From a virus, in IMG/VR virus record IMGVR_UViG_3300028024_000003: a DNA stretch of 64,000 nucleotides; one strand, given 5' to 3'. The position numbers and the translations under genes are program-made. Below, in pieces: positions 3,091 through 63,731 of the stretch. The notes below the pieces were generated by a model that was not told where the DNA came from, made no database searches, and saw nothing but the letters and a program-made list of their open reading frames with translations. Position 1 is the stretch's first letter; the number at the start of each line of letters is the position of its first letter.

Positions 3091-3112
3091 GGTATAGAGC
3101 TCGGGCTATACG
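3091..3112. promoter_or_regulatory. Back-to-back CTATACC (-) and CTATACG (+) elements
   Basis: ggtatag at 3091-3097 and ctatacg at 3106-3112. Confidence 0.5.
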
Positions 3113-3366
3113 AAGTATGCCGATTTCATCCCACGCACATGTCTTCTGCTGACGAAGAAAAACGAAATGCGGATGGCGCTGCCGACCAAAGTTCGCAACC
3201 AACGCCGCAAATCCAGCTCGGTGACGCTCGGCAGGTCAACGAAAATTCAGCTTGCATCCCGTGAAACGCCGGCCGCCGAGCCAGCCAAATCGGAGCGAAC
3301 GATGGAGCGAACCCTCGAGCGACAGCGCTGAGCACTCGGCGCACTTGAGCGTGTGTGACGCGCGCC

Positions 3367-3786
3367 CTACTCGGCGAGGTGGTCCGCGTTGTGCAAGCGC
3401 CGATAGACCAGCCGGTTGTAGATACGCCAGTTCTCCCAGGTCACCCGGACCTGTTCCTTGAAGCACGGCACGCCATACTTTTCGGACAGGTAGAGCGCCA
3501 CCGCGGCAGAACGGCTCTGGCCCAGCGAACAGTGCACAACAAGCTCGGTGCAGCCCTGGTGAAGCTCAACAAAATCGAGCACCTCGCGCGCCTGCGCGTC
3601 GCTGAACACTTCGAGCCCCAGCTGTTCCCCGTCCGTATCGTGAAAGCGTTGCACGAGAACGGCCGCCCACCCATCTTGAGCCGTCAGCGGCTCTTCACTG
3701 CGGTCATGGATGGAAATGAGCACCGCGCCTGGCACTGGCCGGTACGCGGCGGCAACTCTGCGCGGCAGAAAACGGATGTGCTGCAT
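3367..3786 (-). CDS. Protein-tyrosine/dual-specificity phosphatase-like protein
   Basis: HCSLGQSRS (CX5R) active-site motif; LISIHD and RFHD motifs. Confidence 0.8.
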   Translation of the reverse strand: MQHIRFLPRRVAAAYRPVPGAVLISIHDRSEEPLTAQDGWAAVLVQRFHDTDGEQLGLEVFSDAQAREVLDFVELHQGCTELVVHCSLGQSRSAAVALYLSEKYGVPCFKEQVRVTWENWRIYNRLVYRRLHNADHLAE

Positions 3787-3797
3787 GATGTTCGGTG

Positions 3798-4130
3798 CTA
3801 GATGAGCTTGATGGTCAACCAGAGGCGGTCACCGGTCACAACGGACGAGTCCCGCAACGTGTCCGCGGCATACCCCTCGTCGCGCAGGTCACCGACAACA
3901 AGATAGGCGCTGATAACCGCTTCGCGGGGGACCGTCCGTTCGGCAACCAGGAAACGGGTCTCGACGCGAAACGACTCACCCGCCTCGAGCCTCGCGAGCT
4001 CCGCCGTCAGGTGGGCGCGCGTCTTTTCGAGAAGGCCCCGGTAGCAGGCTTCATAGTCGACACCCTGCGCTTTTGCGTGAGCCTCGACAAAGCTGCGCCT
4101 GACGGGGAACCTGGACTCCGGCGGGGTCAT
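3798..4130 (-). CDS. Hypothetical protein
   Basis: ATG at 4130 overlaps the upstream stop (ATGA), suggesting translational coupling. Confidence 0.6.
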   Translation of the reverse strand: MTPPESRFPVRRSFVEAHAKAQGVDYEACYRGLLEKTRAHLTAELARLEAGESFRVETRFLVAERTVPREAVISAYLVVGDLRDEGYAADTLRDSSVVTGDRLWLTIKLI

Positions 4131-4564
4131 GCGGATTTGCCCAGAACGGTGGCGGCCTCGCCCGCTATGGCGTTCGACGCGCGTGTCCAGCCTTCTGCAC
4201 TGCCCGCCCACACGTCGCCTGTCTCCAGGTCGACAGCAACCCACTTCTGCGGGCATCGCGTCGTCAAGGTCAGGGCTTGCGCATCGGCATGCTCGCGAAC
4301 CTGACGGCCGCTCTTGAGCGTGCGCGCAGTCGGCACGACCAGGCGCCAGTGCACGTGGCCTGCCTTCACCAGGCGGCCAGCGCGCTGCAGCTGCTGCATG
4401 AATATGTCGGCGAGCGCCGTCGCGTTGCCCATCGCACGCGGGCGGATGTGCGGATACAGCGTCTCGGCGACGTCCTGCCGGCGAAATGGCTTGTCGCCGC
4501 GCTCTTCGAGGAACCGGTCGACAATGCGCTGATGGGCGACGCTTACCTGCCTGGTGTTTGCCAC
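4127..4564 (-). CDS. Hypothetical protein, possible winged-helix N-terminus
   Basis: Operonic ORF; FRRQDVA...LQRAGRLVKAGHVHW resembles wHTH. Confidence 0.6.
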   Translation of the reverse strand: MANTRQVSVAHQRIVDRFLEERGDKPFRRQDVAETLYPHIRPRAMGNATALADIFMQQLQRAGRLVKAGHVHWRLVVPTARTLKSGRQVREHADAQALTLTTRCPQKWVAVDLETGDVWAGSAEGWTRASNAIAGEAATVLGKSA

Positions 4565-4591
4565 GATAATCCCGTACGAATGCGATTCGGT

Positions 4592-5614: not shown

Positions 5615-5650
5615 TGTTCCTTCGATACATCCGCAGCCGTCGTTGGCCGC

Positions 5651-16764: not shown

Positions 16765-16998
16765 TCAATGTCCGACCAGGCGTTCAGCGTCGAGGGCGAA
16801 GTCGCCCTCCCGTTCGGCTTCAGCCTCAGCTGCGATGGCTGCGGTCGTGAACGTCGTGACTTCGAGCTTTTCGCCCACGTTATCCCGTCCGAGCTTAGCG
16901 GCAATCCACGTTGCGGCGTCCGACAGCCCCTGGATGTCGTCACCGTTGTCTTCGAACGTGATGACCGCGATGACCTGCTTTAGCTTTTTTTGGCTCAT
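16765..16998 (-). CDS. Small acidic hypothetical protein
   Basis: ATG 16998 with GAGGAAAG RBS; terminator hairpin at 16714-16740. Confidence 0.65.
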   Translation of the reverse strand: MSQKKLKQVIAVITFEDNGDDIQGLSDAATWIAAKLGRDNVGEKLEVTTFTTAAIAAEAEAEREGDFALDAERLVGH

Positions 16999-17063
16999 TG
17001 GCTCTTTCCTCGATGGTTGTGACAGCACATGCTGCAACAAGGTATAGCCGCCGCAGACAGCGC

Positions 17064-18374: not shown

Positions 18375-18614
18375 TCAGAACTCGATGACGCCTTCCTTGA
18401 CCAGCACCTGATGCAGCGCATTGAAAACTGCCTGGCCCTGCGCATCGGGCGTGCTTGCATTCGATGCGGCCTCGACGACAGGAGCCAGGTCGAGCTGGTC
18501 GACCAGCTCGGCGGCCATCGTTTCGAACGATTTGCCTTGCGTGTCGGTGACCCGCAGCGAGTATTGCTTCAGGACGTTCTCGATGTCGTCAGCGGTTACG
18601 ACGTAGGGTGCCAT
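18375..18614 (-). CDS. Small hypothetical protein
   Basis: ATG 18614 with GGAGG RBS; CTATACG upstream. Confidence 0.7.
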   Translation of the reverse strand: MAPYVVTADDIENVLKQYSLRVTDTQGKSFETMAAELVDQLDLAPVVEAASNASTPDAQGQAVFNALHQVLVKEGVIEF

Positions 18615-18665: not shown

Positions 18666-18715
18666 CGTATAGCGCGCAAAGAAAACGCCACGGAACCTGA
18701 GTTCCGCGGCGTGTG
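18666..18715 (-). promoter_or_regulatory. Terminator immediately followed by CTATACG element
   Basis: - strand: acgccgcggaac-tcag-gttccgtggcgt-tttcttt, then gcgcgCTATACG (18666-18672). Confidence 0.65.
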
Positions 18716-20962: not shown

Positions 20963-20969
20963 CGTATAG
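20963..20969 (-). promoter_or_regulatory. CTATACG element
   Basis: About 35 nt upstream of dndC-like ATG; terminator hairpin gcggagc/gctccgc at 21010-21028. Confidence 0.6.
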
Positions 20970-34784: not shown

Positions 34785-34791
34785 CTATACC
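34785..34791 (+). promoter_or_regulatory. CTATACC element
   Basis: 34 nt upstream of ATG 34826. Confidence 0.5.
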
Positions 34792-35757: not shown

Positions 35758-35764
35758 CTATACG
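35758..35764 (+). promoter_or_regulatory. CTATACG element
   Basis: After terminator 35678-35702; 33 nt upstream of ATG 35798. Confidence 0.6.
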
Positions 35765-36241: not shown

Positions 36242-36296
36242 CGCCAGTTCTGCCCTTTCGGACTCCCATTTGGGAGTCCTTTCTCATTCTGCAACG

Positions 36297-38177: not shown

Positions 38178-38192
38178 CTGAATGCTCCCACG

Positions 38193-39143: not shown

Positions 39144-39308
39144 TGCGTACGTCCCACCGTCCGTACGCAAGAGAAAAGACCGCCTGAGGCGGATTGCGTA
39201 CGACGAATACTCGCTTGGTGCAGTGTCCGTCGCTTGGCGACGTTTGCCGGTGGGGGCACGGATGACGACCGTTCAGAAAAAGATAGCACAATCCCGCGGG
39301 CCAAGGCC

Positions 39309-39346
39309 AAAAAAGAAAAACCCTCCAAGCCGAAGCAAGGAGGGTT
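39309..39346 (-). terminator. Terminator after the RNR gene
   Basis: aaccctcc/ggagggtt stem with long A-tract on + strand. Confidence 0.7.
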
Positions 39347-39407
39347 GTTGAGGAGTTTTGCTTACCTGTCAGCACGGACCTGCGCCCGCACTATCAGAAC
39401 ACCCGCG

Positions 39408-46442: not shown

Positions 46443-46449
46443 CTATACC
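46443..46449 (+). promoter_or_regulatory. CTATACC element
   Basis: 38 nt upstream of ATG 46488. Confidence 0.5.
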
Positions 46450-46487: not shown

Positions 46488-46841
46488 ATGTCCAGCACGA
46501 CGAACGCAGTGAACGCAGCACGTAACGAATCTCTCGATAAAGAAGTCGCTTTTCGCGCAAAGCTCGGCCAGACGCAGGTGACGTTCGCGCGACTCAAGGA
46601 GATGATTCGTGAACTCGGCTATGCCTTCGACCTGAGCATGTCGTGCAAGAGCATTGCGCGCTACATGACGGGCGACCGCGCGGGCGAGTCCTACCCGGCC
46701 AATTCGCTCTATCCGCGCCAAATCGACGACGGCAGGTCGTACGCCCACATCGAAGCCCGCCGCGACGCCAACTTCGACCGGCTGAAGGAAATCCGCAACA
46801 CGTATTTCGCGGTGCACGGCGGATATATCTACGAGTGGTGA
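46488..46841 (+). CDS. Hypothetical protein
   Basis: GAGAGG RBS; terminator at 46863-46895. Confidence 0.75.
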   Translation: MSSTTNAVNAARNESLDKEVAFRAKLGQTQVTFARLKEMIRELGYAFDLSMSCKSIARYMTGDRAGESYPANSLYPRQIDDGRSYAHIEARRDANFDRLKEIRNTYFAVHGGYIYEW

Positions 46842-46922
46842 TTGCTGTAACTCGCATGTCTCAAAGCCTCCCGCCTTGCGCAGGAGGCTTTCCTTTTGCG
46901 GACTCAAGAGTGTGCCGTCGCT

Positions 46923-46929
46923 CTATACG
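46923..46929 (+). promoter_or_regulatory. CTATACG element
   Basis: After terminator; 35 nt upstream of ATG 46965. Confidence 0.6.
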
Positions 46930-46964: not shown

Positions 46965-47249
46965 ATGACTACACGATTGACCCACGAGCAGGTTACCGCA
47001 CTACTCAAAGACGCACCCGTCCATCGCTTTGGCTCGCCGGCCCTGACGGACATCCACCGCAAACGCGATGAACGCAACCGTTACACGCACTATCAGGCCT
47101 ACGTGGTGTTTCACCCCGGAGTCCGCGGCGGTCCGAGTCATCACACGCTGAACGTTACATACGTAGGCCAGCTCGTGCCGGACATGTACGACATCGAGAA
47201 GGACTGGTTGCTGGCCGCCCAGCCTCATCTGAACACGGGTGCGAGCTAA
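46965..47249 (+). CDS. Hypothetical protein
   Basis: GAGGA RBS; terminator at 47283-47308. Confidence 0.7.
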   Translation: MTTRLTHEQVTALLKDAPVHRFGSPALTDIHRKRDERNRYTHYQAYVVFHPGVRGGPSHHTLNVTYVGQLVPDMYDIEKDWLLAAQPHLNTGAS

Positions 47250-47328
47250 CCACGTTACTCAAAAGGAAAACACCCTCTCAATGCAGCCCCTATTCGGGCT
47301 GCTTTTTCATGTGCATTAGAGGGCCGAG

Positions 47329-47335
47329 CTATACG
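47329..47335 (+). promoter_or_regulatory. CTATACG element
   Basis: 20 nt after terminator; 40 nt upstream of ATG 47376. Confidence 0.6.
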
Positions 47336-47375: not shown

Positions 47376-48044
47376 ATGTCATATCAGACCAACCTCTTCA
47401 CGCTCATCGACACGGCCGACGACCGGGGCAGGGTTCACTTCACCGCGCGCGAGCCAATGCGCACCAAGGAGCAGGCGCGGGACTTTCTTGGAAGCATGTT
47501 CATGGATTTCCCGCTACTTACCGTTCGGCTTGACTCTGTGAAGAAAGCCATCACTGAAGTCGACTTGGAATTGAGCCCCATCGAGGGCGCCACGGTGCTC
47601 AGCGTGAATCTCGCTAAGGTTCTTTTGCTGCCTTCGGTATCGCCGGCCGCTGAGCTGACGGAGTTCCGCGAAATGCTTCTCGCCATGAAGGCGTTTTTCG
47701 AAGCCCACGAGACCGAGCGCGTCGACGTCCAGATTGTGAACAACCGCGACCGCAACAAGCGCGTGTTCGGAGACATCTCCTGCCGCGTGCCGACCGACGA
47801 GCACAAGATGACGAGCGATGAAGCGGCGACCGCGGCCCTCAACGCCCGAATCGAAGCAAGCCCCGCACTCAGCCACTGGCTGCGGCAGGTCGCACTTTCG
47901 CTAGGAAGAATCGGCCCGTGGTCGTGGACTGTCATTCGCGGCGACGAGCTGTTTGGCTACGGGGAAAGCCCGTATTTCAAGTGGCGGGAGAAGCAGCCCC
48001 GCGTGCCGAGCGAACCGGAAAAGCTCCGCGTGCTCGACGTCTAG
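47376..48044 (+). CDS. Hypothetical protein
   Basis: GAGGA RBS; own terminator. Confidence 0.75.
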   Translation: MSYQTNLFTLIDTADDRGRVHFTAREPMRTKEQARDFLGSMFMDFPLLTVRLDSVKKAITEVDLELSPIEGATVLSVNLAKVLLLPSVSPAAELTEFREMLLAMKAFFEAHETERVDVQIVNNRDRNKRVFGDISCRVPTDEHKMTSDEAATAALNARIEASPALSHWLRQVALSLGRIGPWSWTVIRGDELFGYGESPYFKWREKQPRVPSEPEKLRVLDV

Positions 48045-50758: not shown

Positions 50759-50765
50759 CTATACG
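50759..50765 (+). promoter_or_regulatory. CTATACG element
   Basis: 33 nt upstream of ATG 50799. Confidence 0.6.
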
Positions 50766-50798: not shown

Positions 50799-51866
50799 AT
50801 GTCGACCAACTGGGAAGAGATTCGCAAACGCCACAAGAACTATTCGATGCCCGCGCCGGATGAAACCGGACCAGCCCGAATTCTCGATAAGCTCGCGGGC
50901 CTAGGCCTCACAGGCATCGAAAAGGAAGGGCTGGTGCGTCTCGTGCAGCCGGATACAGCAAACACCGGGTTCATTTTCCTGGTCACTGCGACCGAGCTGT
51001 TCGGCGAAGACCCGATGCAGCGCGATGAGCTGGAATTCGCTGAGCGTCGTGGCACGTCCGAGTCGTGGCAGACCATCGCTCTTGACCACTTCAGCCGGAA
51101 GGTTGCGATGTGGCAGGAAGTCGACAACGACTTTTTTGGACTTCACGCCTATCTGCTTGTCGTGGACCTGGATGGCTGGCTTCACAAGCCGGGCAACCAG
51201 GAAGTCGCTGTCCGGCTGTTTCATGACGTGCGTGGTGTTCGAAAAATCGCGTGCTCGCCGAAGGACGTGGCTTCGATTCTGGTCAATCCGTTCGGCGCGC
51301 CGCGCGTGTCGGATAAGCTGGCCCGATTCGATATTCAGCGAATGGACCCGCACAGCTTCGAGCCGCCCGTTCGTGATTTCGTCACTACGGTCACTCATCC
51401 GTTTGTCCAGGTGCCCAATACGGAGGTCTGGCTTCAGAAGCTCGTGGACCATCCGGAAGCTGAGCGCGTCGCTGCGCTTGCCAACACGCTCGTGCGCCGC
51501 GTAATGGGTGCAGAGTACGAGCTGTATGCGAGTCGTCTGGAGGTGATACTCGACCGCAATGGCCGGCGCACGCCGATGCCTTGGTTCATGCTGGGCATGG
51601 GCGAGCAGTACGCGCTCTCGTTCTGCGTGTATCTAGCACTCGCGTTCGAGGATACGTCCATGCCCGCTTCGCAGATGTGGCTGGGTATGACCGATGCCAT
51701 GAACTATCTGGACTTGTCGCACTACATACTCGCGCTCGATGTGCTGCGCGACTTCGTGATAGCCACGGGAGCGAATGCATATGTGCGGACCAACAAGGAG
51801 AACTATCGCGAGTTTGCCAAAAAGAAGCTGGAAAAAGCCGTCGCATGCCGGCTGGCGATGACCTGA
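50799..51866 (+). CDS. Hypothetical protein with degenerate SbcC/Rad50-like C-terminus
   Basis: GGAGG RBS; LGMGEQYALSF...LALA and MTDAMNYLD echo the ABC signature and Walker B/D-loop. Confidence 0.7.
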   Translation: MSTNWEEIRKRHKNYSMPAPDETGPARILDKLAGLGLTGIEKEGLVRLVQPDTANTGFIFLVTATELFGEDPMQRDELEFAERRGTSESWQTIALDHFSRKVAMWQEVDNDFFGLHAYLLVVDLDGWLHKPGNQEVAVRLFHDVRGVRKIACSPKDVASILVNPFGAPRVSDKLARFDIQRMDPHSFEPPVRDFVTTVTHPFVQVPNTEVWLQKLVDHPEAERVAALANTLVRRVMGAEYELYASRLEVILDRNGRRTPMPWFMLGMGEQYALSFCVYLALAFEDTSMPASQMWLGMTDAMNYLDLSHYILALDVLRDFVIATGANAYVRTNKENYREFAKKKLEKAVACRLAMT

Positions 51867-51998: not shown

Positions 51999-52292
51999 TC
52001 ACATCCCTGCGGATGCCAACGCGCTAGTCACTTTCAGAATTTCACCGTGAGAGACCGTCCGCAGCATTTCGGAGCGGCCACGCTTGATGTACTCGTTCAC
52101 CGACATTTCTCGCCAGTCGGGATGCGGTTTATCGTTGGTGAGCGACCATTGGTGATTGGGGCTTTCGCGCCGGAGCACGTAGACGCCTATCGAGCAATGC
52201 AGCCCAAGCCCATAAAACTTCTCGGCGACGATTTTGACTTCGGAGCCATCGTCTCGTTGAATAATTTGCGTGATTTTTCCCGGTGTGTCCAT
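51999..52292 (-). CDS. Hypothetical protein
   Basis: ATG 52292; TTATACG variant at 52339-52345 upstream. Confidence 0.65.
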   Translation of the reverse strand: MDTPGKITQIIQRDDGSEVKIVAEKFYGLGLHCSIGVYVLRRESPNHQWSLTNDKPHPDWREMSVNEYIKRGRSEMLRTVSHGEILKVTSALASAGM

Positions 52293-52480
52293 TGTCTGAT
52301 TCTCAGGTTGCCTTGCAGATGGATTTGACCTACCTACCCGTATAAGCACACCGCCCGAGGTAGCCCAACTAGGCCGCCCAATGTGATGTTTAAATGATAT
52401 ACTAATACCGTTTATTGTATATTTTGCCAATCTGGCCCGCGAGTGTACCGGTCGGCGGTGCCGGACTGCATCAAATTTCC

Positions 52481-52487
52481 CTATACG
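52481..52487 (+). promoter_or_regulatory. CTATACG element
   Basis: 30 nt upstream of ATG 52518. Confidence 0.6.
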
Positions 52488-52517: not shown

Positions 52518-53153
52518 ATGGAAACCATTGGCTATCACGGCACGAAAGTCGATTTCGACGCCTTCGAGTCGGGCACTTTTTCAATCGACCGCATGGTCGG
52601 GCCGCACTTCTCGAAGACGCCGGCGCTCGCCAACAAATTCGCCCTGAGAAATCCCGGGCGAAAGGGTCACGGTAAGCGCACGGGCGGCCGGGTTATTCCG
52701 GTGCGGCTCGCGGGCGAAATCTACAAACTTAACCAGCATTTCGTCGATTTTCCCGGTGCGACCTGCATGTTGTCGCATCCGGAAACGGGCGGACATGTCG
52801 CGTTTGTGGGTGCGGACTATCACGCGTTGGCACATGACATCGGCAAGATTGCATTGACCGAGCGTCCTGACCTGCTCGCGCGGTATGCCGCCATCCGGGG
52901 GCATGACAGCCCGCAAGCCTGCCTCGAGATGATGACGTCGGCGAAGGACTGGCCGCGCGTGAGCATGCTCAAGGCCGAAGGTGCTGAGCTGCAGCTTATG
53001 ACGGACATCGCGCAGGCATACCGCGACATCCTGGTGGCCCGCGGTTATGGGGTCATCGAGTACGTGAATACGGCGAAGAAGGAACAGGTAGGCGACCTCG
53101 CCGACCAGACCTGCTACATCGCGCTGATGCAGCCACGCTTTTTCTATGAATGA
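52518..53153 (+). CDS. ADP-ribosyltransferase-like protein (ART-PolyVal type)
   Basis: YHGT..F..F, GPHFS...A..FA, GRVIPVRL, late EY strand. Confidence 0.6.
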   Translation: METIGYHGTKVDFDAFESGTFSIDRMVGPHFSKTPALANKFALRNPGRKGHGKRTGGRVIPVRLAGEIYKLNQHFVDFPGATCMLSHPETGGHVAFVGADYHALAHDIGKIALTERPDLLARYAAIRGHDSPQACLEMMTSAKDWPRVSMLKAEGAELQLMTDIAQAYRDILVARGYGVIEYVNTAKKEQVGDLADQTCYIALMQPRFFYE

Positions 53154-53177
53154 CACTATTTTTTGGAGGATAACCCG

Positions 53178-53714
53178 ATGAACACGAAACAGACCGAGAA
53201 GGCAATTCTGCTGAGCACGCGTCTTGGCGCACTCAACGCGGCGCAGCTCGCGCATCACTACGTGTTGCGTGTGGCGGTGCATAGCTGCCTCGCGGCGCGC
53301 GATTCGCTCACTGAACCGGAACTGGGTCTCGTGAAGTCGTGCCGCGGCCGGCTCAAGGAAGTCGAAACCCTGACCTCCTCGCAGGAAAAGTGGCTGCTCG
53401 ACATCGCCGCGCGCTCGACGGACGAAATCTCCGAAGAAATCGACCGGCTCATCCAGCGCTGGGCAAGTGGCAACTGGGACGGCGAGCATCCGACCTATCC
53501 GCGTTCGGACTGGCCGCTGCGCGACGCCAAGGGCCTCAAGCCCACGGCGTACTGGCACTGGGCGCTCTCGCAAATCGAGGCGCACGGTGGCAGCGACGAA
53601 CACTGTGACGAATGCGGCGCGCAGCTGGACGGAGAAGGCTGGGATGGCCTGTGTGGCAGTTGCGCGGACCGCGTCGAAAGCGGCGAAGTCACGCGCGAAG
53701 AACTGCACATGTAA
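53178..53714 (+). CDS. Hypothetical protein, paralog A, with C-terminal Zn ribbon
   Basis: GGAGG RBS; QEKWLLDIA, GEHPTYPRSDWP; CxxC...CxxC. Confidence 0.75.
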   Translation: MNTKQTEKAILLSTRLGALNAAQLAHHYVLRVAVHSCLAARDSLTEPELGLVKSCRGRLKEVETLTSSQEKWLLDIAARSTDEISEEIDRLIQRWASGNWDGEHPTYPRSDWPLRDAKGLKPTAYWHWALSQIEAHGGSDEHCDECGAQLDGEGWDGLCGSCADRVESGEVTREELHM

Positions 53715-53746
53715 GCCCGGACAACGAGATAAAACGGAGGAAGAAA

Positions 53747-54190
53747 ATGGGAATTGACTTCACGAAGCTGAACGACCCGGTGTGGCGCGAGAAGATGCGT
53801 CAGGAGCGCGAAGCAGAGGAGGCGAAAGCTGCTGTGCACGAGAAGATGTTGCGCCGTGAGCTCAACATCTGTCTCGAAGCCTGTGAAACGCTCGAATCCA
53901 ATAAGCGTAGCCTGGTGCGCAACTGCCAGACCCGACTGAACACGTATCTGCCGCTCTCAGAGAAGCAGGAATCGTGGCTGCTCGACATCGCGAAGAAGGT
54001 CCGCAAGGACCTTGACTTGAAGGTCAAGGCGCTCGTCGAGAAACACGCCAACGGCGATGAATCCGGCGAGCACCGCAGCTACCCGCGCAGCGACTGGCCG
54101 CTGGCTCAGGAATGCGTTGACAGCCCGCGCGACTACTGGTTCTGGGTCCTGCGCCTGGTGACGGTCTACGGTGATGAGGTGTCGGCATGA
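53747..54190 (+). CDS. Hypothetical protein, paralog B
   Basis: GGAGG RBS; QESWLLDIA, GEHRSYPRSDWP. Confidence 0.75.
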   Translation: MGIDFTKLNDPVWREKMRQEREAEEAKAAVHEKMLRRELNICLEACETLESNKRSLVRNCQTRLNTYLPLSEKQESWLLDIAKKVRKDLDLKVKALVEKHANGDESGEHRSYPRSDWPLAQECVDSPRDYWFWVLRLVTVYGDEVSA

Positions 54191-54552
54191 ACTTTGTCGC
54201 TGAAGTCTGGCTGGAGTGGCCTATCTGCCGCGGCGCAACGATGTTTCGCGCCACGGCGCGCAGTCAGGCTCGTGCTCTCGTGAAAGCGAAGCTGCGTGCG
54301 AAGCTGCTCGACCTGCTTTTGCCCAAGTCGTATCCGGGTGAAGACTGGAGCGGCCGCCCCGTGCGCTACTCGTACGACTTCGGCATTCTGTACGGCGTGC
54401 GCAAGCCCACCGCGCAGGAAGCGGAGGTTGGCGTGGTGCCTATCTGGACCACGATTCTGCCTGGGTATCAGGGTCACGCTGGTGAGAACGCCAGGTCGCA
54501 TCCGGTGGTTGGCGATTTGGCGCTGCTCGCCGGCGAAGGGCTCAAGATTTAA
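54187..54552 (+). CDS. Hypothetical protein
   Basis: ATGA overlap with upstream gene. Confidence 0.65.
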   Translation: MNFVAEVWLEWPICRGATMFRATARSQARALVKAKLRAKLLDLLLPKSYPGEDWSGRPVRYSYDFGILYGVRKPTAQEAEVGVVPIWTTILPGYQGHAGENARSHPVVGDLALLAGEGLKI

Positions 54553-54566
54553 TCAGGGAGAATCGC

Positions 54567-54938
54567 ATGTCGAAGTTATCGGGTTATCCCGCGGAACAGC
54601 AGCCTCGTATCAAGTCTTTGTTCACCCGGCTTCTCGAGCTCAAGGTGAACAAAGGCAAGGTTGGAGAATCTGATGCCGCCATCAAGGCAGCGATGCCCTC
54701 GACGTTCATGGAGGCTTGCCAGGTGGTCGTCACCGTGGACGCGTGTATGTCGCGGCTGTCGCACTATCCGGAAGCCGACCAGCGCCGTATCCGCACACTC
54801 GCCGAGCAGCTCATCGAAGGTCAAATCATCAGCGGCCAGGTTGCCGCCACCGAGGACGCAGTCCAGACTGCAACGCGAGTGGCAGTCAACGACGCACGCC
54901 AGGTTGTGGTCGCCGTCGACGAATACCTCTGCGGCTGA
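54567..54938 (+). CDS. Hypothetical protein made of two ~60-aa repeats
   Basis: LSGYP..Q.RI...QVVVTVD and LSHYP..Q.RI...QVVVAVD. Confidence 0.75.
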   Translation: MSKLSGYPAEQQPRIKSLFTRLLELKVNKGKVGESDAAIKAAMPSTFMEACQVVVTVDACMSRLSHYPEADQRRIRTLAEQLIEGQIISGQVAATEDAVQTATRVAVNDARQVVVAVDEYLCG

Positions 54939-55018: not shown

Positions 55019-55025
55019 CTATACG
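55019..55025 (+). promoter_or_regulatory. CTATACG element
   Basis: 34 nt upstream of ATG 55060. Confidence 0.6.
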
Positions 55026-55059: not shown

Positions 55060-55395
55060 ATGACGACAGCGAAGGACAGCACATCGGAACGACGATTGCA
55101 GCGCATCGAGCAGCTCAAAACTGAGCTGGCGGAACTGCGTCAGAAAGCGGCCGGCCTCGAAGAAGAGCTCGATGCACTTCGGAGCGCGGAAACCCCTGAA
55201 GACCGAGCGCACCTTGCGCGGAAATGGTGGGACGCTTTGCGTGTGGGCGGCATCATCACGCTCGAAGAATTCGAGCAGCTTCTCGACGAATGTCGTGAGG
55301 CGAAAACAAAGAGCCCCTCCTCGGCATGCATCACCTTCCGCAACAGGCTCGAAATCACGATGGCTGATGCGGTGAAATACGTCCGTATGCTCTAG
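55060..55395 (+). CDS. Coiled-coil hypothetical protein
   Basis: GAGGA RBS; terminator at 55411-55438. Confidence 0.7.
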   Translation: MTTAKDSTSERRLQRIEQLKTELAELRQKAAGLEEELDALRSAETPEDRAHLARKWWDALRVGGIITLEEFEQLLDECREAKTKSPSSACITFRNRLEITMADAVKYVRML

Positions 55396-55505: not shown

Positions 55506-57446
55506 TCAGTAGGCGACAACCACGACGCCGCTACCGCCAGCACCTCGACCTGCACCCGTGCCACCCGCGCCACCACCACCCGTGTTGGGCGTGCCGCCTA
55601 CGCCACCGGTTCCTGCGGAAAGCACACCCCCTGCGCCGCCCCCGCCGAGGCCGCCGGCACCCGCCGTGCCGCCTGATGAGGCCGCGGTACCGCCTGCGCC
55701 GCCACCGCCGTAACACTTCTGGGTTCCGGTAAAGGTGTAGCAGAGTCCTGGGCCGCCATCGCCCGCCTTCATCGTTGTGCCGGTCCCGCCGGCGCCACCT
55801 GCACCACCACCGCCGCCGCCCTGAAGCGTCGCCGTAGAATACCCGCCGCTCGCATAACCCGAACCGGATGCGCCGCCCTCATAGCCCGAATACCCGCCCA
55901 AGGCCTTGAGCGACCCGAACGACGAAGGCTGGCCATTTTCGAGCGAATCCTGGCCGACGCTGCCGCCATCACCCACGACCACGGCGACGCTCGCATTGGG
56001 CGTGACCGTGTAACTGGCGCTGTACAGCACCTGGCCGCCACCACCACCCAGACCACCGGTAGTGGCCGAGACCGTCTGGGCTGCCTGCGCGCCTCCGCCG
56101 CCCGCCACCACCAGCGCCTTCACGCTGGTGAGTTTGGCCGGGACCGTCCAGTTCGTGCTCGCCGTAAACGTCTGGACGTTCAGGACCGCTGAGCCCGTGA
56201 GCTGTACTGTGAGCGCACCGCTCGTCGCGCCCGTAATGCTCAGCTTGCCTGCGTAGCTGGTGACGCCCGTCGGATAAAAGGCAACCGTCGCGGTACACGA
56301 GCCTTTCGCGGGAATTGTCGAGCAGCCGCTGACCGTGAAGTTCGTCGAGTCGGAAGCGAGCGACAACGTGCCGGCCGCGTCGCCGGCGTTCGTCAACGTG
56401 ACCGTCTGGCTGGACGTCGTGTAATCGCTGACCGATGAAAAGTCGAGCGACGGCACGGATGCCGTGACGAGCGAGCTGGGCGTGCTCGTGAACGTGTAGG
56501 TCTGCTGCCCCGTCGCTCCCTTGTAGCTCGCCTTGAGCGTGAAGGTTTGCGGACCGGACGCTGTCGGCGTTCCGCTGAGCACACCATTGCCATCGAGCGC
56601 GAGGCCTGCGGGCAGCGCGTCGACCACCGACCACGTCGTGCCCGACACCTGGTATGCCGGGTCATTGCTGCTGATGAGCGAACGGAAGTCGTAGCTCGCG
56701 TAGGGGAGACCTTGAGAGCCTGCGGGCAGCGTCGTGGTGCCAAGCGATACGGAGATGGCCTGCGTGACAACCTGATAGCTCTGCTGCCCGTTGACGCCCT
56801 TGTACGTCGCCCGCGCGGTGACGCTGCCGGTGCCGCTCGCCGTTGGCGTGCCGCCGATGAAGCCGTCGTTCGTGAGGTACAGGCCCGCAGGCAGTGTGCT
56901 CGAGACAACCGTCCACGTAACACCAGCGCCGGTGTATGCCGCGTCGCCTGATACGCGCAGCAGCGCGCGCAGGTCGTAGCTATAGGGCTGACCGATAAGG
57001 CCCTGCGGAGGTGTGCCGCTTGCGAGACCGACCGCAATGTCCGCCGAATAAATCTGGTAAGTCTGCTGGCCGGCCTTGCTCTTGTAGCTGGCTATGACCT
57101 GGAAAGTCGACGAACCGCCTGCGGTAGGCGTGCCGGAAATCGTGCCGTTGCTGTTGAGCGTCAGGCCGGCAGGCAAGCTGCCCGAGGCAATGCTCCAGCG
57201 CACGCCGTAGCCGTTGTACGCCGCATCGCCCGTTACCGACAGCAACGGTTTGAAGTCAAAACCGGCATACGCCTGTCCGACCTGCGCTGCAGGCAGGCTG
57301 AACCCCGCAAGCGCAACGGTGATATTGCCAGCTGCGGAGTGATTCGGCACGGGCACCACGACGTAGTAGTCGGAGGCGAGCGCGGGGAAGCTGGCAGCAA
57401 GCGCTGCGGTCAGCAAGGAGGCTTTAAAGAAATTCGGAAGTGACAT
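55506..57446 (-). CDS. Secreted protein: three putative Ig repeats, an additional Ig-like domain and a glycine-rich C-terminal domain
   Basis: Signal peptide; YYVVVPVP; LPAGL...GTPT x3; TFTASTNWTVP...VVAGGGG glycine-rich domain. Confidence 0.85.
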   Translation of the reverse strand: MSLPNFFKASLLTAALAASFPALASDYYVVVPVPNHSAAGNITVALAGFSLPAAQVGQAYAGFDFKPLLSVTGDAAYNGYGVRWSIASGSLPAGLTLNSNGTISGTPTAGGSSTFQVIASYKSKAGQQTYQIYSADIAVGLASGTPPQGLIGQPYSYDLRALLRVSGDAAYTGAGVTWTVVSSTLPAGLYLTNDGFIGGTPTASGTGSVTARATYKGVNGQQSYQVVTQAISVSLGTTTLPAGSQGLPYASYDFRSLISSNDPAYQVSGTTWSVVDALPAGLALDGNGVLSGTPTASGPQTFTLKASYKGATGQQTYTFTSTPSSLVTASVPSLDFSSVSDYTTSSQTVTLTNAGDAAGTLSLASDSTNFTVSGCSTIPAKGSCTATVAFYPTGVTSYAGKLSITGATSGALTVQLTGSAVLNVQTFTASTNWTVPAKLTSVKALVVAGGGGAQAAQTVSATTGGLGGGGGQVLYSASYTVTPNASVAVVVGDGGSVGQDSLENGQPSSFGSLKALGGYSGYEGGASGSGYASGGYSTATLQGGGGGGAGGAGGTGTTMKAGDGGPGLCYTFTGTQKCYGGGGAGGTAASSGGTAGAGGLGGGGAGGVLSAGTGGVGGTPNTGGGGAGGTGAGRGAGGSGVVVVAY

Positions 57447-57472: not shown

Positions 57473-57479
57473 CGTATAG
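57473..57479 (-). promoter_or_regulatory. CTATACG element
   Basis: 26 nt upstream of ATG 57446; terminator at 57511-57536. Confidence 0.6.
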
Positions 57480-57560: not shown

Positions 57561-58052
57561 TCAACAGGGGTCGACGCGAACCCACCGGTCCCGCGAACCA
57601 TACATGTGCGACGCTTCCTTGGCTTCACGCGGGTCGAGCAGGTCATAGACCATCGGGACATGGTCCATGCCGCACACGAGGCGCATCCACGGGTCGACGA
57701 GATAGCGATTGTCGACGAGCGCGAAATCGTGCCCTTCAGCCAGGTCCATACGCGTGAACGTGCAGTCCTGGTTATCCTCGCACATGAAGCCCACGACTTC
57801 GACCTTCTGCTGCGTCAGCGTTCGCTTGATGTGCTTCGCGTAGTTCGTGCAGACGACCGAGCTCGAGCCATCGGGCATCGAGACGCGCCAATCGCCTGCG
57901 AAACCCGGATTCTGCTTCTTGAAGTCTTCAAACTCGGCCATCGTCAGCGTCGGGTGACGCTCTTCAATGATGACACGCATGCCGATTGCGTCATCCGAGC
58001 CGAAAAGTTGCTCCAGTTCCGCGTGAACTGCACTGCTCATTGCTGCATTCAT
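57561..58052 (-). CDS. Hypothetical protein
   Basis: GAGG RBS; CTNYA...GHDFAL...DPW conserved-looking motifs. Confidence 0.75.
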   Translation of the reverse strand: MNAAMSSAVHAELEQLFGSDDAIGMRVIIEERHPTLTMAEFEDFKKQNPGFAGDWRVSMPDGSSSVVCTNYAKHIKRTLTQQKVEVVGFMCEDNQDCTFTRMDLAEGHDFALVDNRYLVDPWMRLVCGMDHVPMVYDLLDPREAKEASHMYGSRDRWVRVDPC

Positions 58053-58084: not shown

Positions 58085-58156
58085 CGTATAGGACGCAGCT
58101 CGCAACACCAACCATTCCTCCAGAGCGGCGATTTTAGCCGTATTTCGCGCTATACG
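58085..58156. promoter_or_regulatory. Divergent pair of CTATACG elements
   Basis: cgtatag at 58085-58091 (- strand gene) and ctatacg at 58150-58156 (+ strand gene). Confidence 0.65.
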
Positions 58157-58191: not shown

Positions 58192-58572
58192 ATGAAATTC
58201 GTCGTTGTTACTGGCATGGTTTATCCGAATGACCCGACTGGCAAGACGCGTCCTGCTGTCGTTTTGGGACTTGTGAACGGTCGCGTCGCTATCGCTCCCT
58301 GCTCGACCAACTTCGAGCGTACTGGCGAAGTGAAGCCGGGTAGCGTACTCATCACCCGCAAGAGCCCCGCTTTTGCCGGTACGAGCTTTCACGCGAATCA
58401 GGTCATCATCCGCATCCGCGATGCTGGTCTGTACTCGATTGATTCGGACTTCGTGAAGGGATGCCGTCAGATTGGCATTCTCGACACGGACCTGGACAAG
58501 CGCGTGGGTGCCCAGATGCAGGATATGATGAGTCGTTATGACCTGCTTCACTGCAATCGCAAGTACGGGTAA
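58192..58572 (+). CDS. PemK/MazF-like protein with no adjacent antitoxin
   Basis: KTRPAVVL...AIAPCST pattern; GGAGG RBS; terminator at 58587-58620. Confidence 0.55.
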   Translation: MKFVVVTGMVYPNDPTGKTRPAVVLGLVNGRVAIAPCSTNFERTGEVKPGSVLITRKSPAFAGTSFHANQVIIRIRDAGLYSIDSDFVKGCRQIGILDTDLDKRVGAQMQDMMSRYDLLHCNRKYG

Positions 58573-58628: not shown

Positions 58629-58877
58629 TTAGCGGTGCAGGCCGGCCCAGAGGAAGAAGCCCGCGAAGATGAGCACCCCAAGTGCGCGCAGGATGCGCCC
58701 GTTGCGGTGCATCTGCCCGAACTCAGACTTCTTGATTTGCTGGCGAAACGACAGGTAATCGAGTTTCTTTGTGAGGGTGGCCTGGAACTTGACCGCTGCG
58801 CGAACCTCGAAAAAGGCGCCCGCGAGCATGAACAGGACGCCGCCGGTCAGACTGGCGCACGCGATGATGAGAAGCAT
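58629..58877 (-). CDS. Small two-TM membrane protein
   Basis: Hydrophobic N- and C-termini; CTATACG at 58936-58942. Confidence 0.65.
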   Translation of the reverse strand: MLLIIACASLTGGVLFMLAGAFFEVRAAVKFQATLTKKLDYLSFRQQIKKSEFGQMHRNGRILRALGVLIFAGFFLWAGLHR

Positions 58878-58991
58878 GAAACATTAACTCCGGATTGGAT
58901 TACACAGAACGCGCTTTGCAGCGCTCACGTATTTCCGTATAGAGCGTGCTGCCGCGCCGCGCTCAGCAAGGCGCTACGCGGGCCGGAAAAG

Positions 58992-59040: not shown

Positions 59041-59541
59041 TCAGGCCGCCATGAGCAGGCGCGCCGCATACGTCTCGGAAATACGCTGCGATACGTCTTC
59101 AGCAAAGCGGTCGACGAGCCCGTAGACGACGTCATCGGCAGCATCCTGGTGGATGATGGCCATGGCACCGACCAGCGCGTTGTTGCCTTCGCTGATGTAC
59201 TCGCCGACGAGCCACAGTTGACCTCTGCCGTTGTCGGGCACAACCGGTCGAACGACTGCTTGGCGCGGACCGACTGCGGTCGGATAGTCTTTCGTGGTGA
59301 AAAACGGCCGCTCGCGGTACGACGTCCATGGGTGATTCTCGTACGACGTCCAGCCATGCGCGGAGACGAGGCGGTCGATTGCCAGCTTTTCGAGGTCACT
59401 GCGCACCGCGTCACGTACAGTGAGCTGATGCGCGCCTGCCGTAGCTTCAGCAACGGCGTCTGCCCAGCTGCTCGCTTCGATGAGGATTTCAACAAGCTTG
59501 ATGGAATCGGATTTTCTGCCACGTACTCGCCATTCTTTCAT
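59041..59541 (-). CDS. Hypothetical protein
   Basis: AAAGGA RBS; CTATACG at 59588-59594. Confidence 0.75.
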   Translation of the reverse strand: MKEWRVRGRKSDSIKLVEILIEASSWADAVAEATAGAHQLTVRDAVRSDLEKLAIDRLVSAHGWTSYENHPWTSYRERPFFTTKDYPTAVGPRQAVVRPVVPDNGRGQLWLVGEYISEGNNALVGAMAIIHQDAADDVVYGLVDRFAEDVSQRISETYAARLLMAA

Positions 59542-59647
59542 GATGTGTCCTTTGGGCTATGCACTCAAGTTAAATGTCCTACCTGGGCGTATAGCAAACT
59601 TCCAGGATTGCCTGGCACGGGCGTAGCGAGAGAACTGGCGTAGAAAT

Positions 59648-59695: not shown

Positions 59696-60166
59696 TCAAG
59701 CGGACGCTGTTGCTGCGCTCGCGAGTACAAACGTGTCTGCCTCGACGACGAATGCGTCCACGAACGATTCGATTTCTTCTTTCGACGCGGTTTCCGGAAT
59801 AGTCGTAAGCTTCGACTGGTCACCGTGGCCGTCTTCCTGCGTGTACGAACAGCTCATGACGAAATGCGCAGTCTTCGAGTCGTAGCGAATACTCGCCAGT
59901 GCCTCAGTGAATCCCGCCGCACCTTCATAGTCCTTCATCACGACGTTGTCGAGCACGCTCTCTGCCCGCCAACCATATTGGCGGCAAAGGCGACTCGTAG
60001 CAATATGCCACACGTCCTCTTCGGTTCGGAGCTCGGCGCTCCTCACAACCAGTAGCTGGTACGGCGCCTTACCGGCGATTTCTATGGCCGCCGTGCGGCT
60101 CTGCGCCTGAATGAAAACGGCTACGGCTCCTTCAGGTGTCGAGCCACATACTTTCCAGTTCTGCAT
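59696..60166 (-). CDS. Hypothetical acidic protein
   Basis: GGAG RBS, ATG 60166; CTATACG at 60209-60215. Confidence 0.7.
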   Translation of the reverse strand: MQNWKVCGSTPEGAVAVFIQAQSRTAAIEIAGKAPYQLLVVRSAELRTEEDVWHIATSRLCRQYGWRAESVLDNVVMKDYEGAAGFTEALASIRYDSKTAHFVMSCSYTQEDGHGDQSKLTTIPETASKEEIESFVDAFVVEADTFVLASAATASA

Positions 60167-60246
60167 GGTGTTCTCCGTCTTTCCTTGATTGATTGGGTCC
60201 TGCTCTACCGTATAGCCGACCCACCTCAAATCTGAACAGAACCCTG

Positions 60247-61091: not shown

Positions 61092-62255
61092 TCAGCGCAC
61101 GTCCGGCAGATACTCACCTGTCGTCGGGTGCTTCATAACGCGCATGCCCGCCGCGTCCCGCTGCAGCACAGGGCTGCGTGAGGCCTGCACAGGTGGCTGG
61201 CCAGGACAAACGCCGAGATGCTCGCGTCCCAGTTCGGTGATGACTCGCCCGCGTGGCGTGCGCTGGAGCAGCCCTTGCTGGATGAGGAACGGCTCGACCG
61301 CATCCTCAATCGTGTCTTCTGCCTCGCTGATAGCTGCGCACAGCGTATTGAGCCCCACCGGGCCGCCGCCATAGAAGTCGACCATCGCCAGAAGCAGACG
61401 ACGGTCAATCGAATCTAGCCCGCGCGAGTCCACTCCGAGCATGGCGAGCGCCGCCTGTGCATCCGCCCCGCTGACCTCGTTCGGGTTCGCGCCGTTGACC
61501 GTCGCATAGTCCCGCACGCGCCGAAGCAGCCGGTTGGCTATACGCGGCGTGCCACGCGAGCGCATGGCAACCTCGAGCGCGGCGCCTGGCGCCATGTCGA
61601 CGCCAAGCAACCCGGCCGAACGGCTCACGATGGCCTCGAGCTCGTCGTCGGTGTAAAACTCCATGCGTCCGGTAATGCCGAAGCGGTCGCGCAGCGGCGC
61701 TGAGAGACTGCCTGCGCGCGTGGTAGCGCCGACCAGCGTGAAGGGCGACAGCGGCACGGTTACCGTGCGGGCTTCCTGCCCTTCTCCGACCATGATGTCG
61801 AGCTTGTAGTCTTCCATCGCCGGATACAGTACCTCTTCAACGACGGGCGGCAGCCGGTGAATCTCGTCGATGAAAAGCACGTCGTTGGGGTTCAGTCCAG
61901 TGAGCAGCGCGGCAATGTCACCCGGCTTCTCAAGCACCGGCCCAGTCGTTACCTTGAGGCCGACGCCGAGCTCCGCGGCGATGATTTGCGCGAGCGTTGT
62001 CTTGCCCAGCCCCGGCGGCCCGAAAAGCAGCACGTGGTCGAGCGCCTCGGCGCGGTGCTTGGCCGCCGCGAGGAAGATGGAAAGCTGGCCTCGCAGCGCC
62101 TTTTGGCCGATGTAGTCGGCAAGGCGCTTCGGGCGCAGCGCGCGGTCCTCCACCGGCTCTCCGGCTTGCGCAACCGGCGACACGATGGGCGCGGGGGCGG
62201 CCGTCGGCTCAGCAGCGGCACCGCGCGCGTTGCGCTTACGAGGCGTGGCAGTCAT
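61092..62255 (-). CDS. ruvB: Holliday junction branch-migration ATPase RuvB
   Basis: LRP...[49 protein letters not shown]. Confidence 0.96.
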
Positions 62256-62641
62256 TAATGGCCCGCCAGGATGGCCGTTTCTGCCTGTTGGCCGGACCAG
62301 CCCGCGTAATACAGGGATGCCGTGATGGCCATCGAATCCTTCTGGATTTCGTGATACACCTTCAGCGCCTTCATCGGGTCCTTGAAGACCAAATACGGCA
62401 CTTCTTCGTGCAGCATCCGCGCCGATTCGGTGAAGCCGTGGCCCGACAGTTGCGACACCAGCGATTCCAGGCTCTTGTGGTTGCGGCTATCGACGCTCGG
62501 ATACGAAATGTGCACCAGCGCCATGCCTTCAGCGGACATCGCATCCGACAGCGCACAGCGCATCTGGTCTGCGGTCAGGGCGGTGACGACTTTGTCGTCC
62601 TCGAACGGAATGGCACAGCCTTGATAAAGGGTCTTGTTCAT
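62255..62641 (-). CDS. Hypothetical protein coupled to ruvB
   Basis: TAATG stop/start overlap with ruvB; TTGACA-17 nt-TATATT promoter at 62674-62702. Confidence 0.7.
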
Positions 62642-62710
62642 GCTTCGAAACATATTCGGTTGCCGGAATTAATAATATACTGTTTTAAAGGTATTTTGTC
62701 AACAAAGCGG

Positions 62711-62962
62711 TTACGCGCGCACGCGTCGAAGCAGTTCCCGCGCACTGCTCAGTGCGACCGATAGTCCTGTGCGCCGGAAAAACGACGTCCAGCTGCCGGC
62801 CTTCTCATGCGCATCGACCGCCTTGACGAGCGCTTCGAGCGCATCCTTCAGTTCCGCGTACGTGGGCTGGTCGCTCTGCGTCCGCTCTCGCATGCGGCCG
62901 TCCGACATCCGGTACGCCGCGACACGGCCATCAGCGCCGCACACCACATCTTCTATTGCCAT
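62711..62962 (-). CDS. Small hypothetical protein
   Basis: AGAGG RBS, ATG 62962. Confidence 0.6.
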   Translation of the reverse strand: MAIEDVVCGADGRVAAYRMSDGRMRERTQSDQPTYAELKDALEALVKAVDAHEKAGSWTSFFRRTGLSVALSSARELLRRVRA

Positions 62963-62993
62963 AGTTGCCTCTAAATGGTTGGTTGGCGTCGCG

Positions 62994-63617
62994 TCAGTGC
63001 ATGAGCGCCCGTTGCTCGAGCAGCGGAATCGCAAACACGCGGAATGCGACGAACGCCATGAAGAGAGTGAAGGCCATGTTGAACGCGGCCCCCATGACAT
63101 CCGGCTTGAGCTTGCGCGCAACGTCTACAGACAGTTTTTCGAGGTCAGGGCCCAGCCATTCCACCGCCTTGCGCTGAATGAACTCCCCTTCCGTTAGCTC
63201 CTTTTCAATTGCTCCGCGCACCTCGAGCGCCAGCGTCTGGGTGATGCTGCGTGTCTTGCACAGGCGCCCGATGACACCGCGATATTCGTAGGCCGAAAAC
63301 AGCGTGTATCCGAACACGCACGCGTACGCCAGATAAAACGGCCAAGGCGCGCGCAGAAAATAGACCGGCACCATCGAGAGCATGAGCAGAGCGTTTTGCC
63401 ACACGATGGAAAACATGACCTTGCGGTGAGCCTGAGCAATGAGCACCTGCGCCTGCGCGCTTGCCGCATCGCGGATTTTCTGCGCAACAGCTTCTGAGAT
63501 GAATTCCCTGGCTGCATCGACCGCGCCAAGAGTCGGAAATATCGAAGTCAGGGTCGATTTTGCGGCGCCAAACAGACGTGACGACCACGAAGTGGACCCG
63601 TTTGAGTCAGTGCTCAT
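62994..63617 (-). CDS. Membrane protein (about 3 TM)
   Basis: GGAG RBS; hydrophobic segments; TGgTATACT extended -10 near 63650. Confidence 0.7.
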   Translation of the reverse strand: MSTDSNGSTSWSSRLFGAAKSTLTSIFPTLGAVDAAREFISEAVAQKIRDAASAQAQVLIAQAHRKVMFSIVWQNALLMLSMVPVYFLRAPWPFYLAYACVFGYTLFSAYEYRGVIGRLCKTRSITQTLALEVRGAIEKELTEGEFIQRKAVEWLGPDLEKLSVDVARKLKPDVMGAAFNMAFTLFMAFVAFRVFAIPLLEQRALMH

Positions 63618-63731
63618 GTACAACAACTCCAGTCTGGTTTTGACGAATTAGTATACCATGCAATATATCATTATCACTCGCTGGCGCTCGGCTATACAAA
63701 ATCAGGTCAACTCACACATGAAAGGAACATC

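Follow-up and report, generated by a model that had tools for sequence, protein, structure and literature searches.

Who reads a short promoter-like heptamer that recurs, mostly in the same posture, before the small genes of a giant phage-like element? This question is raised by the 64,000-nucleotide stretch of IMG/VR record IMGVR_UViG_3300028024_000003 (referred to here as the window, with positions counted from its first letter). A preliminary description of this DNA had listed 19 oriented copies of a CTATAC(G/C) element and proposed that they define a separate program of about 19 genes, read with the help of an element-encoded sigma factor, activator or RNA polymerase. We placed the window, through its ligase gene, at positions 235,072-299,071, reversed, of a 333,603-bp soil-metagenome contig (ENA ERZ27250357 k141_10830), and assembled 136,045 bp of that contig (record 188,603-324,647; 41%) by a gene-by-gene walk with no mismatch.

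The window contains 21 CTATAC(G/C) copies compared with 3.10 ± 1.67 expected from dinucleotide-preserving shuffles (n = 100), none of which reached 21; with a G+C content of 60%, the window should rarely contain a TATA-bearing heptamer on composition. The excess is concentrated between genes. The intergenic DNA defined by our own gene map (8.8 kb at 53% G+C) holds 18 copies against 0.79 expected, the maximum among 2000 first-order Markov simulations being 5, and GCTATAC and CTATACG are its most frequent 7-mers, while merely 3 copies fall in the 55 kb of coding DNA. The enrichment therefore holds against intergenic background, and the objection that the motif might be no more frequent than such background would predict is removed.

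Position and orientation are equally regular. Eighteen exact copies point toward the downstream start codon from a distance of 26 to 58 nt (median, ∼34 nt), and a Shine-Dalgarno sequence is present at 17 of these 18 starts, the exception being the gene served by 57473(-). Strong terminator-like hairpins stand just before several copies, and two pairs, 58085(-)/58150(+) and 3091(-)/3106(+), are divergent inside short intergenic regions (Table 1). A scan for canonical -35/-10 promoters in the cassette region (window 46-64 kb) gave 6 sites compared with 5.2 expected, so that the genes there have no other recognisable promoter. Across the 136 kb we counted 45 CTATAC[ACG] copies, at a density that peaks in the cassette region and is low in the long small-gene operon. 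An automatic test for a ribosome-binding site (RBS) followed by an open reading frame (ORF) classed 30 of the 45 as gene-proximal, and about 6 others adjoin called genes on inspection, 5 of them preceding He_PIG paralogues that lack a Shine-Dalgarno sequence. All 19 coordinates in the preliminary description were correct: 17 mark exact CTATAC[GC] copies, and the other two mark the variants TTATACG, at 52339(-), and CTATACA, at 63692(+). The spacing and orientation it gave are confirmed for the 18 exact copies; its list had overlooked 17041(-) and 3106(+).

To define the motif, we made one alignment of the 19 window copies and another of 55 gene-proximal ones, the latter drawn from both the element and its relatives. 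The consensus of the 55 is gCTATACG-N5-RGGmCA, with information limited to a short stretch of 7-8 positions. CTATAC is invariant across the aligned copies; the base preceding it, -14 in a sigma-70 register, is G in 30 of 55 copies and A in none, following a weak c-g-n-G pattern immediately 5' of the motif within GC-rich flanks. An R-G-G is enriched 6-8 nt past the motif, followed by c-A, and from there a G-poor, A/C/T-rich leader extends to the RBS. The alignments of the 55 copies show no conservation at -20 to -45 and no information at -30 to -40, in agreement with the earlier statement that no -35 element is shared. Compared with sigma-70-family promoters, the T-12 and A-11 of our putative register are both invariant, but the last-position T (-7) expected for group 1 and 2 factors is lacking, and neither a -35 at 16-18 bp nor a TG at -15/-14 is found, T occupying -15 in 8 of 55 copies. 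The ∼17-23 bp that T7-type promoters conserve from -17 to +6 have no counterpart either, nothing being kept upstream of -17, and the dyad or direct repeat of a dimeric-factor site is missing from what is a lone asymmetric 7-mer. No separate core promoter lies between motif and RBS, the leader being only ∼34 nt long.

The last position of the motif separates it from ordinary -10 elements. When NTATANN heptamers followed by an RBS, start codon and ORF of 50 codons or more were collected, position 7 of the gene-proximal CTATACN copies was G in 35, C in 14, A in 6 and T in 3, the final T thus being replaced in 55 of 58. In their flanks the CTATACA copies agree with those ending in G or C, whereas the 3 CTATACT copies have the T-rich and TG flanks of the other promoter class of this element and a different downstream sequence. 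T is thus genuinely avoided at position 7, and this splits the two classes.

That other class consists of a T-tract at about -20/-19, TG at -15/-14 and TATA(A/C)T, i.e., an extended -10 promoter, with scant -35 signal; 26 of the 28 TATA(A/C)T copies are intergenic. It serves NadV, Prs, NrtR, polysaccharide genes, the NAD-dependent ligase, ribonucleotide reductase, and NUDIX and AAA genes. The preliminary description was thus right that two promoter classes coexist, but its TTGnnn-N17 formula for the ordinary one was only partly so. An operator-like 15-mer, GTAAATYGCRAYTAA, follows several of the second-class sites by ∼5 nt (e.g., 8495, 9463 and position 4086 of locus L064), and a perfect palindrome, TGATAGTATACTATCA, intergenic at window 148-167 and with TATACT on both strands, also looks like an operator. 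A TATACT element lies 83 nt upstream of the motif copy at 52481(+).

Homologues of the 163-aa orphan protein encoded at window 57561-58052 form a graded series, and their contigs are syntenic with the window. The locus at 76% protein identity (L061, 19 kb) carries 14 CTATAC[GC] copies, that at 67% (L062, 20 kb) carries 6 plus 2 CTATACA copies, and that at 55% (L063, 20 kb) carries 15, compared with ∼3 per locus expected on composition; at 83% identity (L077, 4.2 kb), all 5 CTATAC[ACG] copies are gene-associated. Most copies in the relatives precede an RBS and a start codon. Nine window genes have orthologues in relatives at 41-76% protein identity, giving 18 upstream regions to compare; the motif persists in 17 of them, and in the 18th it is carried by an inserted gene. 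With the motif as anchor, these regions match the window with an identity of 100% at positions 1-6 and 65% at position 7, compared with 0.53-0.59 at -1 to -6, ∼0.3 (near random) at -7 to -30 and ∼0.48 downstream. In a contig 90-94% identical to the window, 5 of 5 intergenic copies in the overlap are intact and the intragenic antisense copy 61538 is mutated. The two intragenic copies, 42976(+) and 61538(+), look fortuitous, the latter because it is lost in this relative while all intergenic copies of that stretch persist. The phylogenetic footprint is the strongest evidence for a probable function of the heptamer itself.

Beyond this lineage the motif disappears. In 33 loci with distant homologues (32-45% identity) of the 163-aa protein, many of them on 90-290-kb contigs, copies do not exceed expectation and only 2 are gene-associated. 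GCTATACS occurs 12 times in jumbo phage XacN1 and 18 times in Xoo-sp13, compared with 26 and 20 for a reversed control pattern, so that neither is enriched, and the IMG/VR loci reached through ribonucleotide reductase are unrelated low-GC phages without a comparable motif. By these comparisons the motif is lineage-specific, kept at predicted orthologous promoters down to 55% protein identity and absent from the distant elements, XacN1 and Xoo-sp13.

Three known kinds of site were considered and rejected. An FlhDC box or GerE/NarL site does not fit a single asymmetric 7-mer at -10 with unconserved sequence upstream; a MotA-box-like -30 element would leave too short a leader for a further -10 and start before the RBS; and for a T7-like promoter the motif is too short and orthologous identity at -7 to -30 too low (∼0.3).

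Nearly all of the genes behind the motif are orphans without a Pfam match, the exceptions being a 736-aa PAPS-reductase/DndC-like protein, the weakly ART-like first gene of a five-gene operon, and He_PIG surface-type proteins. Membership in the group had earlier been extended to a DndC-like gene, an ART, a PemK-like gene and both Ig-repeat genes. The DndC-like gene belongs to it; the ART-like gene does follow the motif, but its match (E value, 0.0016) falls below the Pfam cut-off and the assignment is weak. Pfam scans detected no PemK-like domain in any motif-driven gene, and such a member is not supported. As for the Ig-repeat genes, that at 55506-57446 is preceded by the motif but the RCC1-type gene starting at 48359 has TTATACT and ATATACC upstream instead. 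The expectation of mostly orphan genes was sound, but the group is larger than 19 and extends well past the window. The He_PIG (Ig-like) genes form a paralogue family (window 55506-57446, L058 4598-6541 and L076 1-4425) whose C-terminal tips vary, being glycine-rich, fibrinogen-like or of other kinds; in five of the paralogues the motif lies 26-43 nt ahead of a start that, in contrast to those of the remaining motif-driven genes, has no Shine-Dalgarno sequence.

The explanation that we favour, tentatively and at somewhat less than an even chance, is that a second, -10-type promoter class has CTATAC(G>C>A) as its core, lacks a -35 and needs a dedicated, element-encoded sigma-like factor acting on the host core polymerase. 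In a sigma-70 register the motif would occupy -13 to -7 (C-13, T-12, A-11, T-10, A-9, C-8 and G/C-7), with a partly kept G-14, and transcription would start at the purine-GG ∼6 nt downstream (about +1), each copy opening a G-poor leader of ∼27 nt into an RBS and ORF. Many of the units are single-gene cassettes flanked by terminators and placed in either orientation. The motif-to-start leader of ∼34 nt, together with the conserved RBS, implies that the motif should lie within ∼10 nt of the transcription start. Of the -10 bases, it is A-11 and T-7 that region 2 of sigma-70 captures in the flipped-out state. More than 50 sites that avoid T at -7 and have no -35 and no conserved T at -15 (hence no full TG) should therefore be poor substrates for the host sigma-70 holoenzyme alone, and this fits a class that stays silent until a dedicated factor appears. 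Such a factor would redirect the host core RNA polymerase while requiring a -10-type element only, as gp55 of phage T4 does, and the outcome would be a separately timed program beside the sigma-70-type class of T-tract-TGn-TATA(A/C)T promoters. The combination of host core and element factor is favoured by what else the element carries: an RtcR/sigma-54-type promoter, FlhDC, NrtR, a kinase with a GerE regulator, and the extended -10 class. Jumbo phages offer a precedent, since those without a polymerase of their own commonly encode minimal sigma factors (PMC7824862).

The closest functional analogue is the T4 late promoter, which consists of one 8-bp box set about a helical turn ahead of the start, has no -35, occurs in ∼50 copies of either polarity and is read by gp55 on host core (PMC2988020). 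Like that promoter (TATAAATA; the host core acts there together with gp55, gp33 and the gp45 clamp), our motif is a single short -10 box of 7-8 bp with no -35, its putative start being placed by the RGG 6-8 nt downstream, and it occurs in dozens of copies on both strands beside sigma-70-type promoters, which in T4 are the early ones (PMC2988020). The two are not the same sequence, however: the T4 box is AT-only, whereas CTATACG is GC-flanked and gCTATAC(G/C) does not match the T4 consensus. T4 has an AT-rich segment downstream where this element has a conserved purine-GG start region, the T4 late genes are structural whereas those here are mostly small orphans, and T4 has gp55, gp33 and gp45, of which we saw no homologue in the part of the contig that was read.

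Several observations weigh against a dedicated sigma-like factor. No sigma-70-family domain, even a faint one, was found among the genes called in the 136 kb and in ∼60 kb of relatives, nor was any gp55/gp33-like PHROG or Pfam match. A search of RNA runs found none containing this DNA and so gave no transcript 5' ends. The conserved RGGmCA start resembles the initiation sequences of phage polymerases more than it does sigma-dependent promoters, and a host alternative sigma factor has to be allowed a small share of the probability. The search for sigma or RNA polymerase genes suggested in the preliminary description likewise gave none in the 136 kb, split beta/beta' polymerase genes included, and no sliding clamp (gp45 homologue) was seen there. 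PHROG scans of 30 orphans returned families of unknown function only, plus one weak kinase match; Atlas searches with two candidate small proteins gave no match; and a literature search on the motif string gave nothing beyond primers. The separate program proposed earlier stands as an oriented, lineage-specific promoter-like class that has no -35 and avoids the final T, while an element-encoded reader for it, whether sigma factor, activator or polymerase, is an inference.

The start region lends weight to an element-encoded RNA polymerase, the main rival reading, which we regard as unlikely. The enzyme could be of the multisubunit phiKZ/AR9 type, carried in the virion or synthesised once infection has begun, or else an atypical single-subunit one, and it would recognise a short element and initiate ∼6 nt past it at a conserved purine-G. 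The early virion-polymerase promoters of AR9, AAATATATATTAT-(6N)-G+1, and of phiKZ have an element, ∼6 nt and a conserved G start (PMC5312081), a geometry that the motif would match if its conserved RGGmCA, with R-G-G enriched 6-8 nt downstream, is the start region. Early promoters of phiKZ-like phages also occur in many copies before small hypothetical genes of a jumbo genome, as in 201phi2-1 (PMC5312081; PMC11512511), and our element is itself jumbo-sized and has unknown-function families in common with jumbo phages. Yet virion-polymerase promoters are extended and AT-rich over at least 13 nt (PMC5312081), compared with 7-8 nt in GC-rich flanks here, and T7-type promoters conserve ∼17-23 nt. 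Jumbo phages follow three patterns, the phiKZ-like ones having polymerases and no sigma factor, the T4-like ones a minimal or RpoD-like sigma factor and no polymerase, and a third group neither (PMC7824862). In the 136 kb of the element that were read no polymerase gene was seen, and the coexistence of sigma-70- and sigma-54-type promoters with regulators of host polymerase is unlike phiKZ-like phages (PMC7824862).

A quite improbable alternative, in our view, is that the host polymerase reads the motif with no factor from the element beyond, perhaps, an activator: a host alternative sigma factor, or sigma-70 aided by G-14 and a host or element activator, would then make the class a reflection of host physiology. 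The CTATAC core is indeed that of a sigma-S or sigma-70 -10 element (CTATACT), the final-T form of which is used by the other class within its TGnTATA(A/C)T promoters; G-14 and C-13 are sigma-S-like, and the element clearly uses host holoenzymes elsewhere. T at -7 is, however, among the two key -10 bases for group 1 and 2 sigma factors of the sigma-70 family, and it is selected against in 55 sites, where T-15 is unconserved and the flanks are GC-rich rather than T-rich. Extracytoplasmic function factors and most alternative sigma factors need a -35, which is absent, as is any conserved upstream activator site, and a motif read by the host would not be expected to be confined to one element lineage and missing from other large elements of similar GC. 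Very improbable, finally, is a non-promoter role as an RNA processing or stabilising signal, or as the DNA site of a repressor, modification or nicking enzyme. A gene-oriented motif would be present in read-through RNA, to which RGGmCA and the G-poor leader might also belong as signals, but many copies come right after strong terminators or in short divergent regions without other promoter-like sequence, the canonical promoter scan mentioned above found no excess, and the motif is one non-palindromic 7-mer whose distance from the RBS is fixed.

The finding is solid and its kind is familiar. Phage-specific promoter classes are already known; what is new is the sequence, the non-T rule at -7, and their occurrence in an uncultivated clade of 0.33 to ∼0.7 Mb. 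The motif provides a ready map of transcription units for a giant phage-like clade that recurs in rhizosphere and root metagenomes, sorts the genes of the element into two regulatory classes from sequence alone, and poses the biochemical question of what reads a -10-like element whose -7 must be non-T. Were the reader a new sigma-like factor or polymerase, the pair would be a compact orthogonal promoter/factor system and a new example of promoter recognition; were it a host factor, it would help to identify the host. The most far-reaching form of our proposal is that this soil/rhizosphere clade runs part of its program from gCTATAC(G/C)-N5-RGG with an obligately non-T -7, read by a factor or polymerase without a recognisable sigma-70-family domain, which would be a new module of promoter recognition, alongside host sigma-70 and sigma-54 and the FlhDC, RtcR and two-component regulators of the element; taken whole, we hold it to be possible but doubtful.

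Table 1. Copies of the motif and sites of the second promoter class in the window
Feature	Position	Strand	Context
CTATACC	3091..3097	-	28 nt before ATG of 95-aa orphan gene (2775-3062)
CTATACG	3106..3112	+	back to back with 3091(-), 8-bp gap; no RBS/ORF behind
CTATACC	17041..17047	-	42 nt before ATG of 77-aa orphan gene (16765-16998), also predicted by the collection's gene caller
CTATACG	18666..18672	-	after hairpin with T-run; 51 nt before 79-aa orphan gene (18375-18614)
CTATACG	20963..20969	-	34 nt before 736-aa gene with PAPS-reductase/DndC-like domain (18718-20928)
CTATACC	34785..34791	+	34 nt before 280-aa orphan gene (34826-35668)
CTATACG	35758..35764	+	33 nt before 147-aa orphan gene (35798-36241)
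CTATACC	46443..46449	+	38 nt before 117-aa orphan gene (46488-46841)
CTATACG	46923..46929	+	after terminator-like hairpin (46873-46888); 35 nt before 94-aa orphan gene (46965-47249)
CTATACG	47329..47335	+	after terminator 47283-47302; 40 nt before 222-aa orphan gene (47376-48044); kept at L062 orthologue
CTATACG	50759..50765	+	33 nt before 355-aa orphan gene (50799-51866); kept in L061, L063
Variant TTATACG, then GGTAGGTAGG	52339..52345	-	46 nt before 97-aa gene (51999-52292)
CTATACG	52481..52487	+	30 nt before five-gene operon (52518-54938), first gene weakly ART-like; kept in L061, L062, L063
CTATACG	55019..55025	+	34 nt before 111-aa orphan gene (55060-55395)
CTATACG	57473..57479	-	after terminator 57538-57517; 26 nt before He_PIG/glycine-rich 646-aa gene (55506-57446); no Shine-Dalgarno
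CTATACG	58085..58091	-	32 nt before 163-aa orphan gene (57561-58052); divergent with 58150; same spacing in L061, L062, L063
CTATACG	58150..58156	+	35 nt before 126-aa orphan gene (58192-58572); kept in L061, L062, L063
CTATACG	58936..58942	-	after terminator 59019-58996; 58 nt before 82-aa orphan gene (58629-58877)
CTATACG	59588..59594	-	after terminator 59676-59653; 46 nt before 166-aa orphan gene (59041-59541); L063 orthologue has CTATACA
CTATACG	60209..60215	-	42 nt before 156-aa orphan gene (59696-60166)
Variant CTATACA, then aaatCAGGtCA	63692..63698	+	33 nt before gene starting at 63732 (265 aa in contig)
Intragenic exact copies	42976, 61538	+	within genes
Second-class sites	6604, 8495, 9463, 11394, 12634, 13933, 15290, 24695, 29642, 31493, 32418, 41685 and others		

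The back-to-back pair at 3091-3112 reads GGTATAG-AGCTCGGG-CTATACG. Its plus-strand copy, which has no ORF of its own, faces the end of a convergent gene from the 3' side; transcription of a small or antisense RNA from this copy is possible, or it may be inactive.

The 136 kb consist mainly of orphan genes. Those with a recognisable product include genes for NadV/Prs, ribonucleotide reductase, the NAD ligase, adenylosuccinate synthase, an Rnl2-type RNA ligase, RtcB, an AlkB-like protein, ClpP, RNase II/R and two HU proteins, along with a dNMP-kinase-like gene whose Pfam match is faint. SLT and T5orf172 genes, the Pfam families Phage_phiTE_072 and Phage_P22_Y8K6 and several PHROG families of unknown function were also found, and homologues of a 757-aa protein occur in three jumbo phages, XacN1, Xoo-sp13 and SCTP-2, as well as in an uncultured phage of 485 kb. 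Among the genes of the 136 kb we saw none for a capsid, portal or terminase and none for conjugation or plasmid replication, and "jumbo phage-like" is therefore the best label for the element, though not a proven one. A syntenic relative 90-94% identical to it (L070; JGI 3300046694 Ga0495649_0000004) lies on a contig of 699,364 bp, so that the full element may greatly exceed the 333-kb contig and rank in size with the largest phage genomes reported.

Twenty studies of rhizosphere, root and soil metagenomes contain parts of the sequence, and contigs of four rhizosphere runs include relatives at 80-99% identity. A near-identity search of isolated phages and plasmids gave no match, NadV, the DndC-like protein, the AAA protein and a 390-aa orphan, used as protein queries, led to no close relative in culture, and a genome collection yielded nothing but distant homologues, in Acidithiobacillus and an Oleiharenicola plasmid. 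IMG/VR queries other than that with ribonucleotide reductase returned no relatives. FlhC (198 aa) and FlhD (107 aa) homologues are encoded side by side on the same contig (L074 14601-15517 (-), record ∼203-204 kb), which hints at a beta- or gamma-proteobacterial host.

The element also carries regulators of host-type transcription. A gene for RtcR, a sigma-54 activator, is divergent from rtcB (L076 7484-11224), and a TGGCAC-N5-TCGCA sigma-54-type promoter lies ∼45 nt before the rtcB start; the element thus appears to use the host sigma-54 holoenzyme. An NrtR regulator gene is present as well. The cassette region adjoins a gene pair (L058 2223-4402) for a HisKA_3 histidine kinase and a response regulator of GerE/LuxR type, and this pair is kept in every relative examined (L061, L062, L063 and L070); L063 has an additional methyl-accepting chemotaxis-type gene.

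Mobile elements have inserted into this element. An IS66-family transposon (TnpA-like, TnpB and DDE transposase genes) lies beside three tandem tyrosine-recombinase genes of the recombinase-in-trio type (L072 16242-21695). Window 36000-39400 is lower in GC (56.7%) and holds two minus-strand ORFs with low GC3, 37023-38177 (384 aa) and 38193-39170 (325 aa), neither of which had a Pfam or PHROG match; this low-GC stretch may be a recent insertion.

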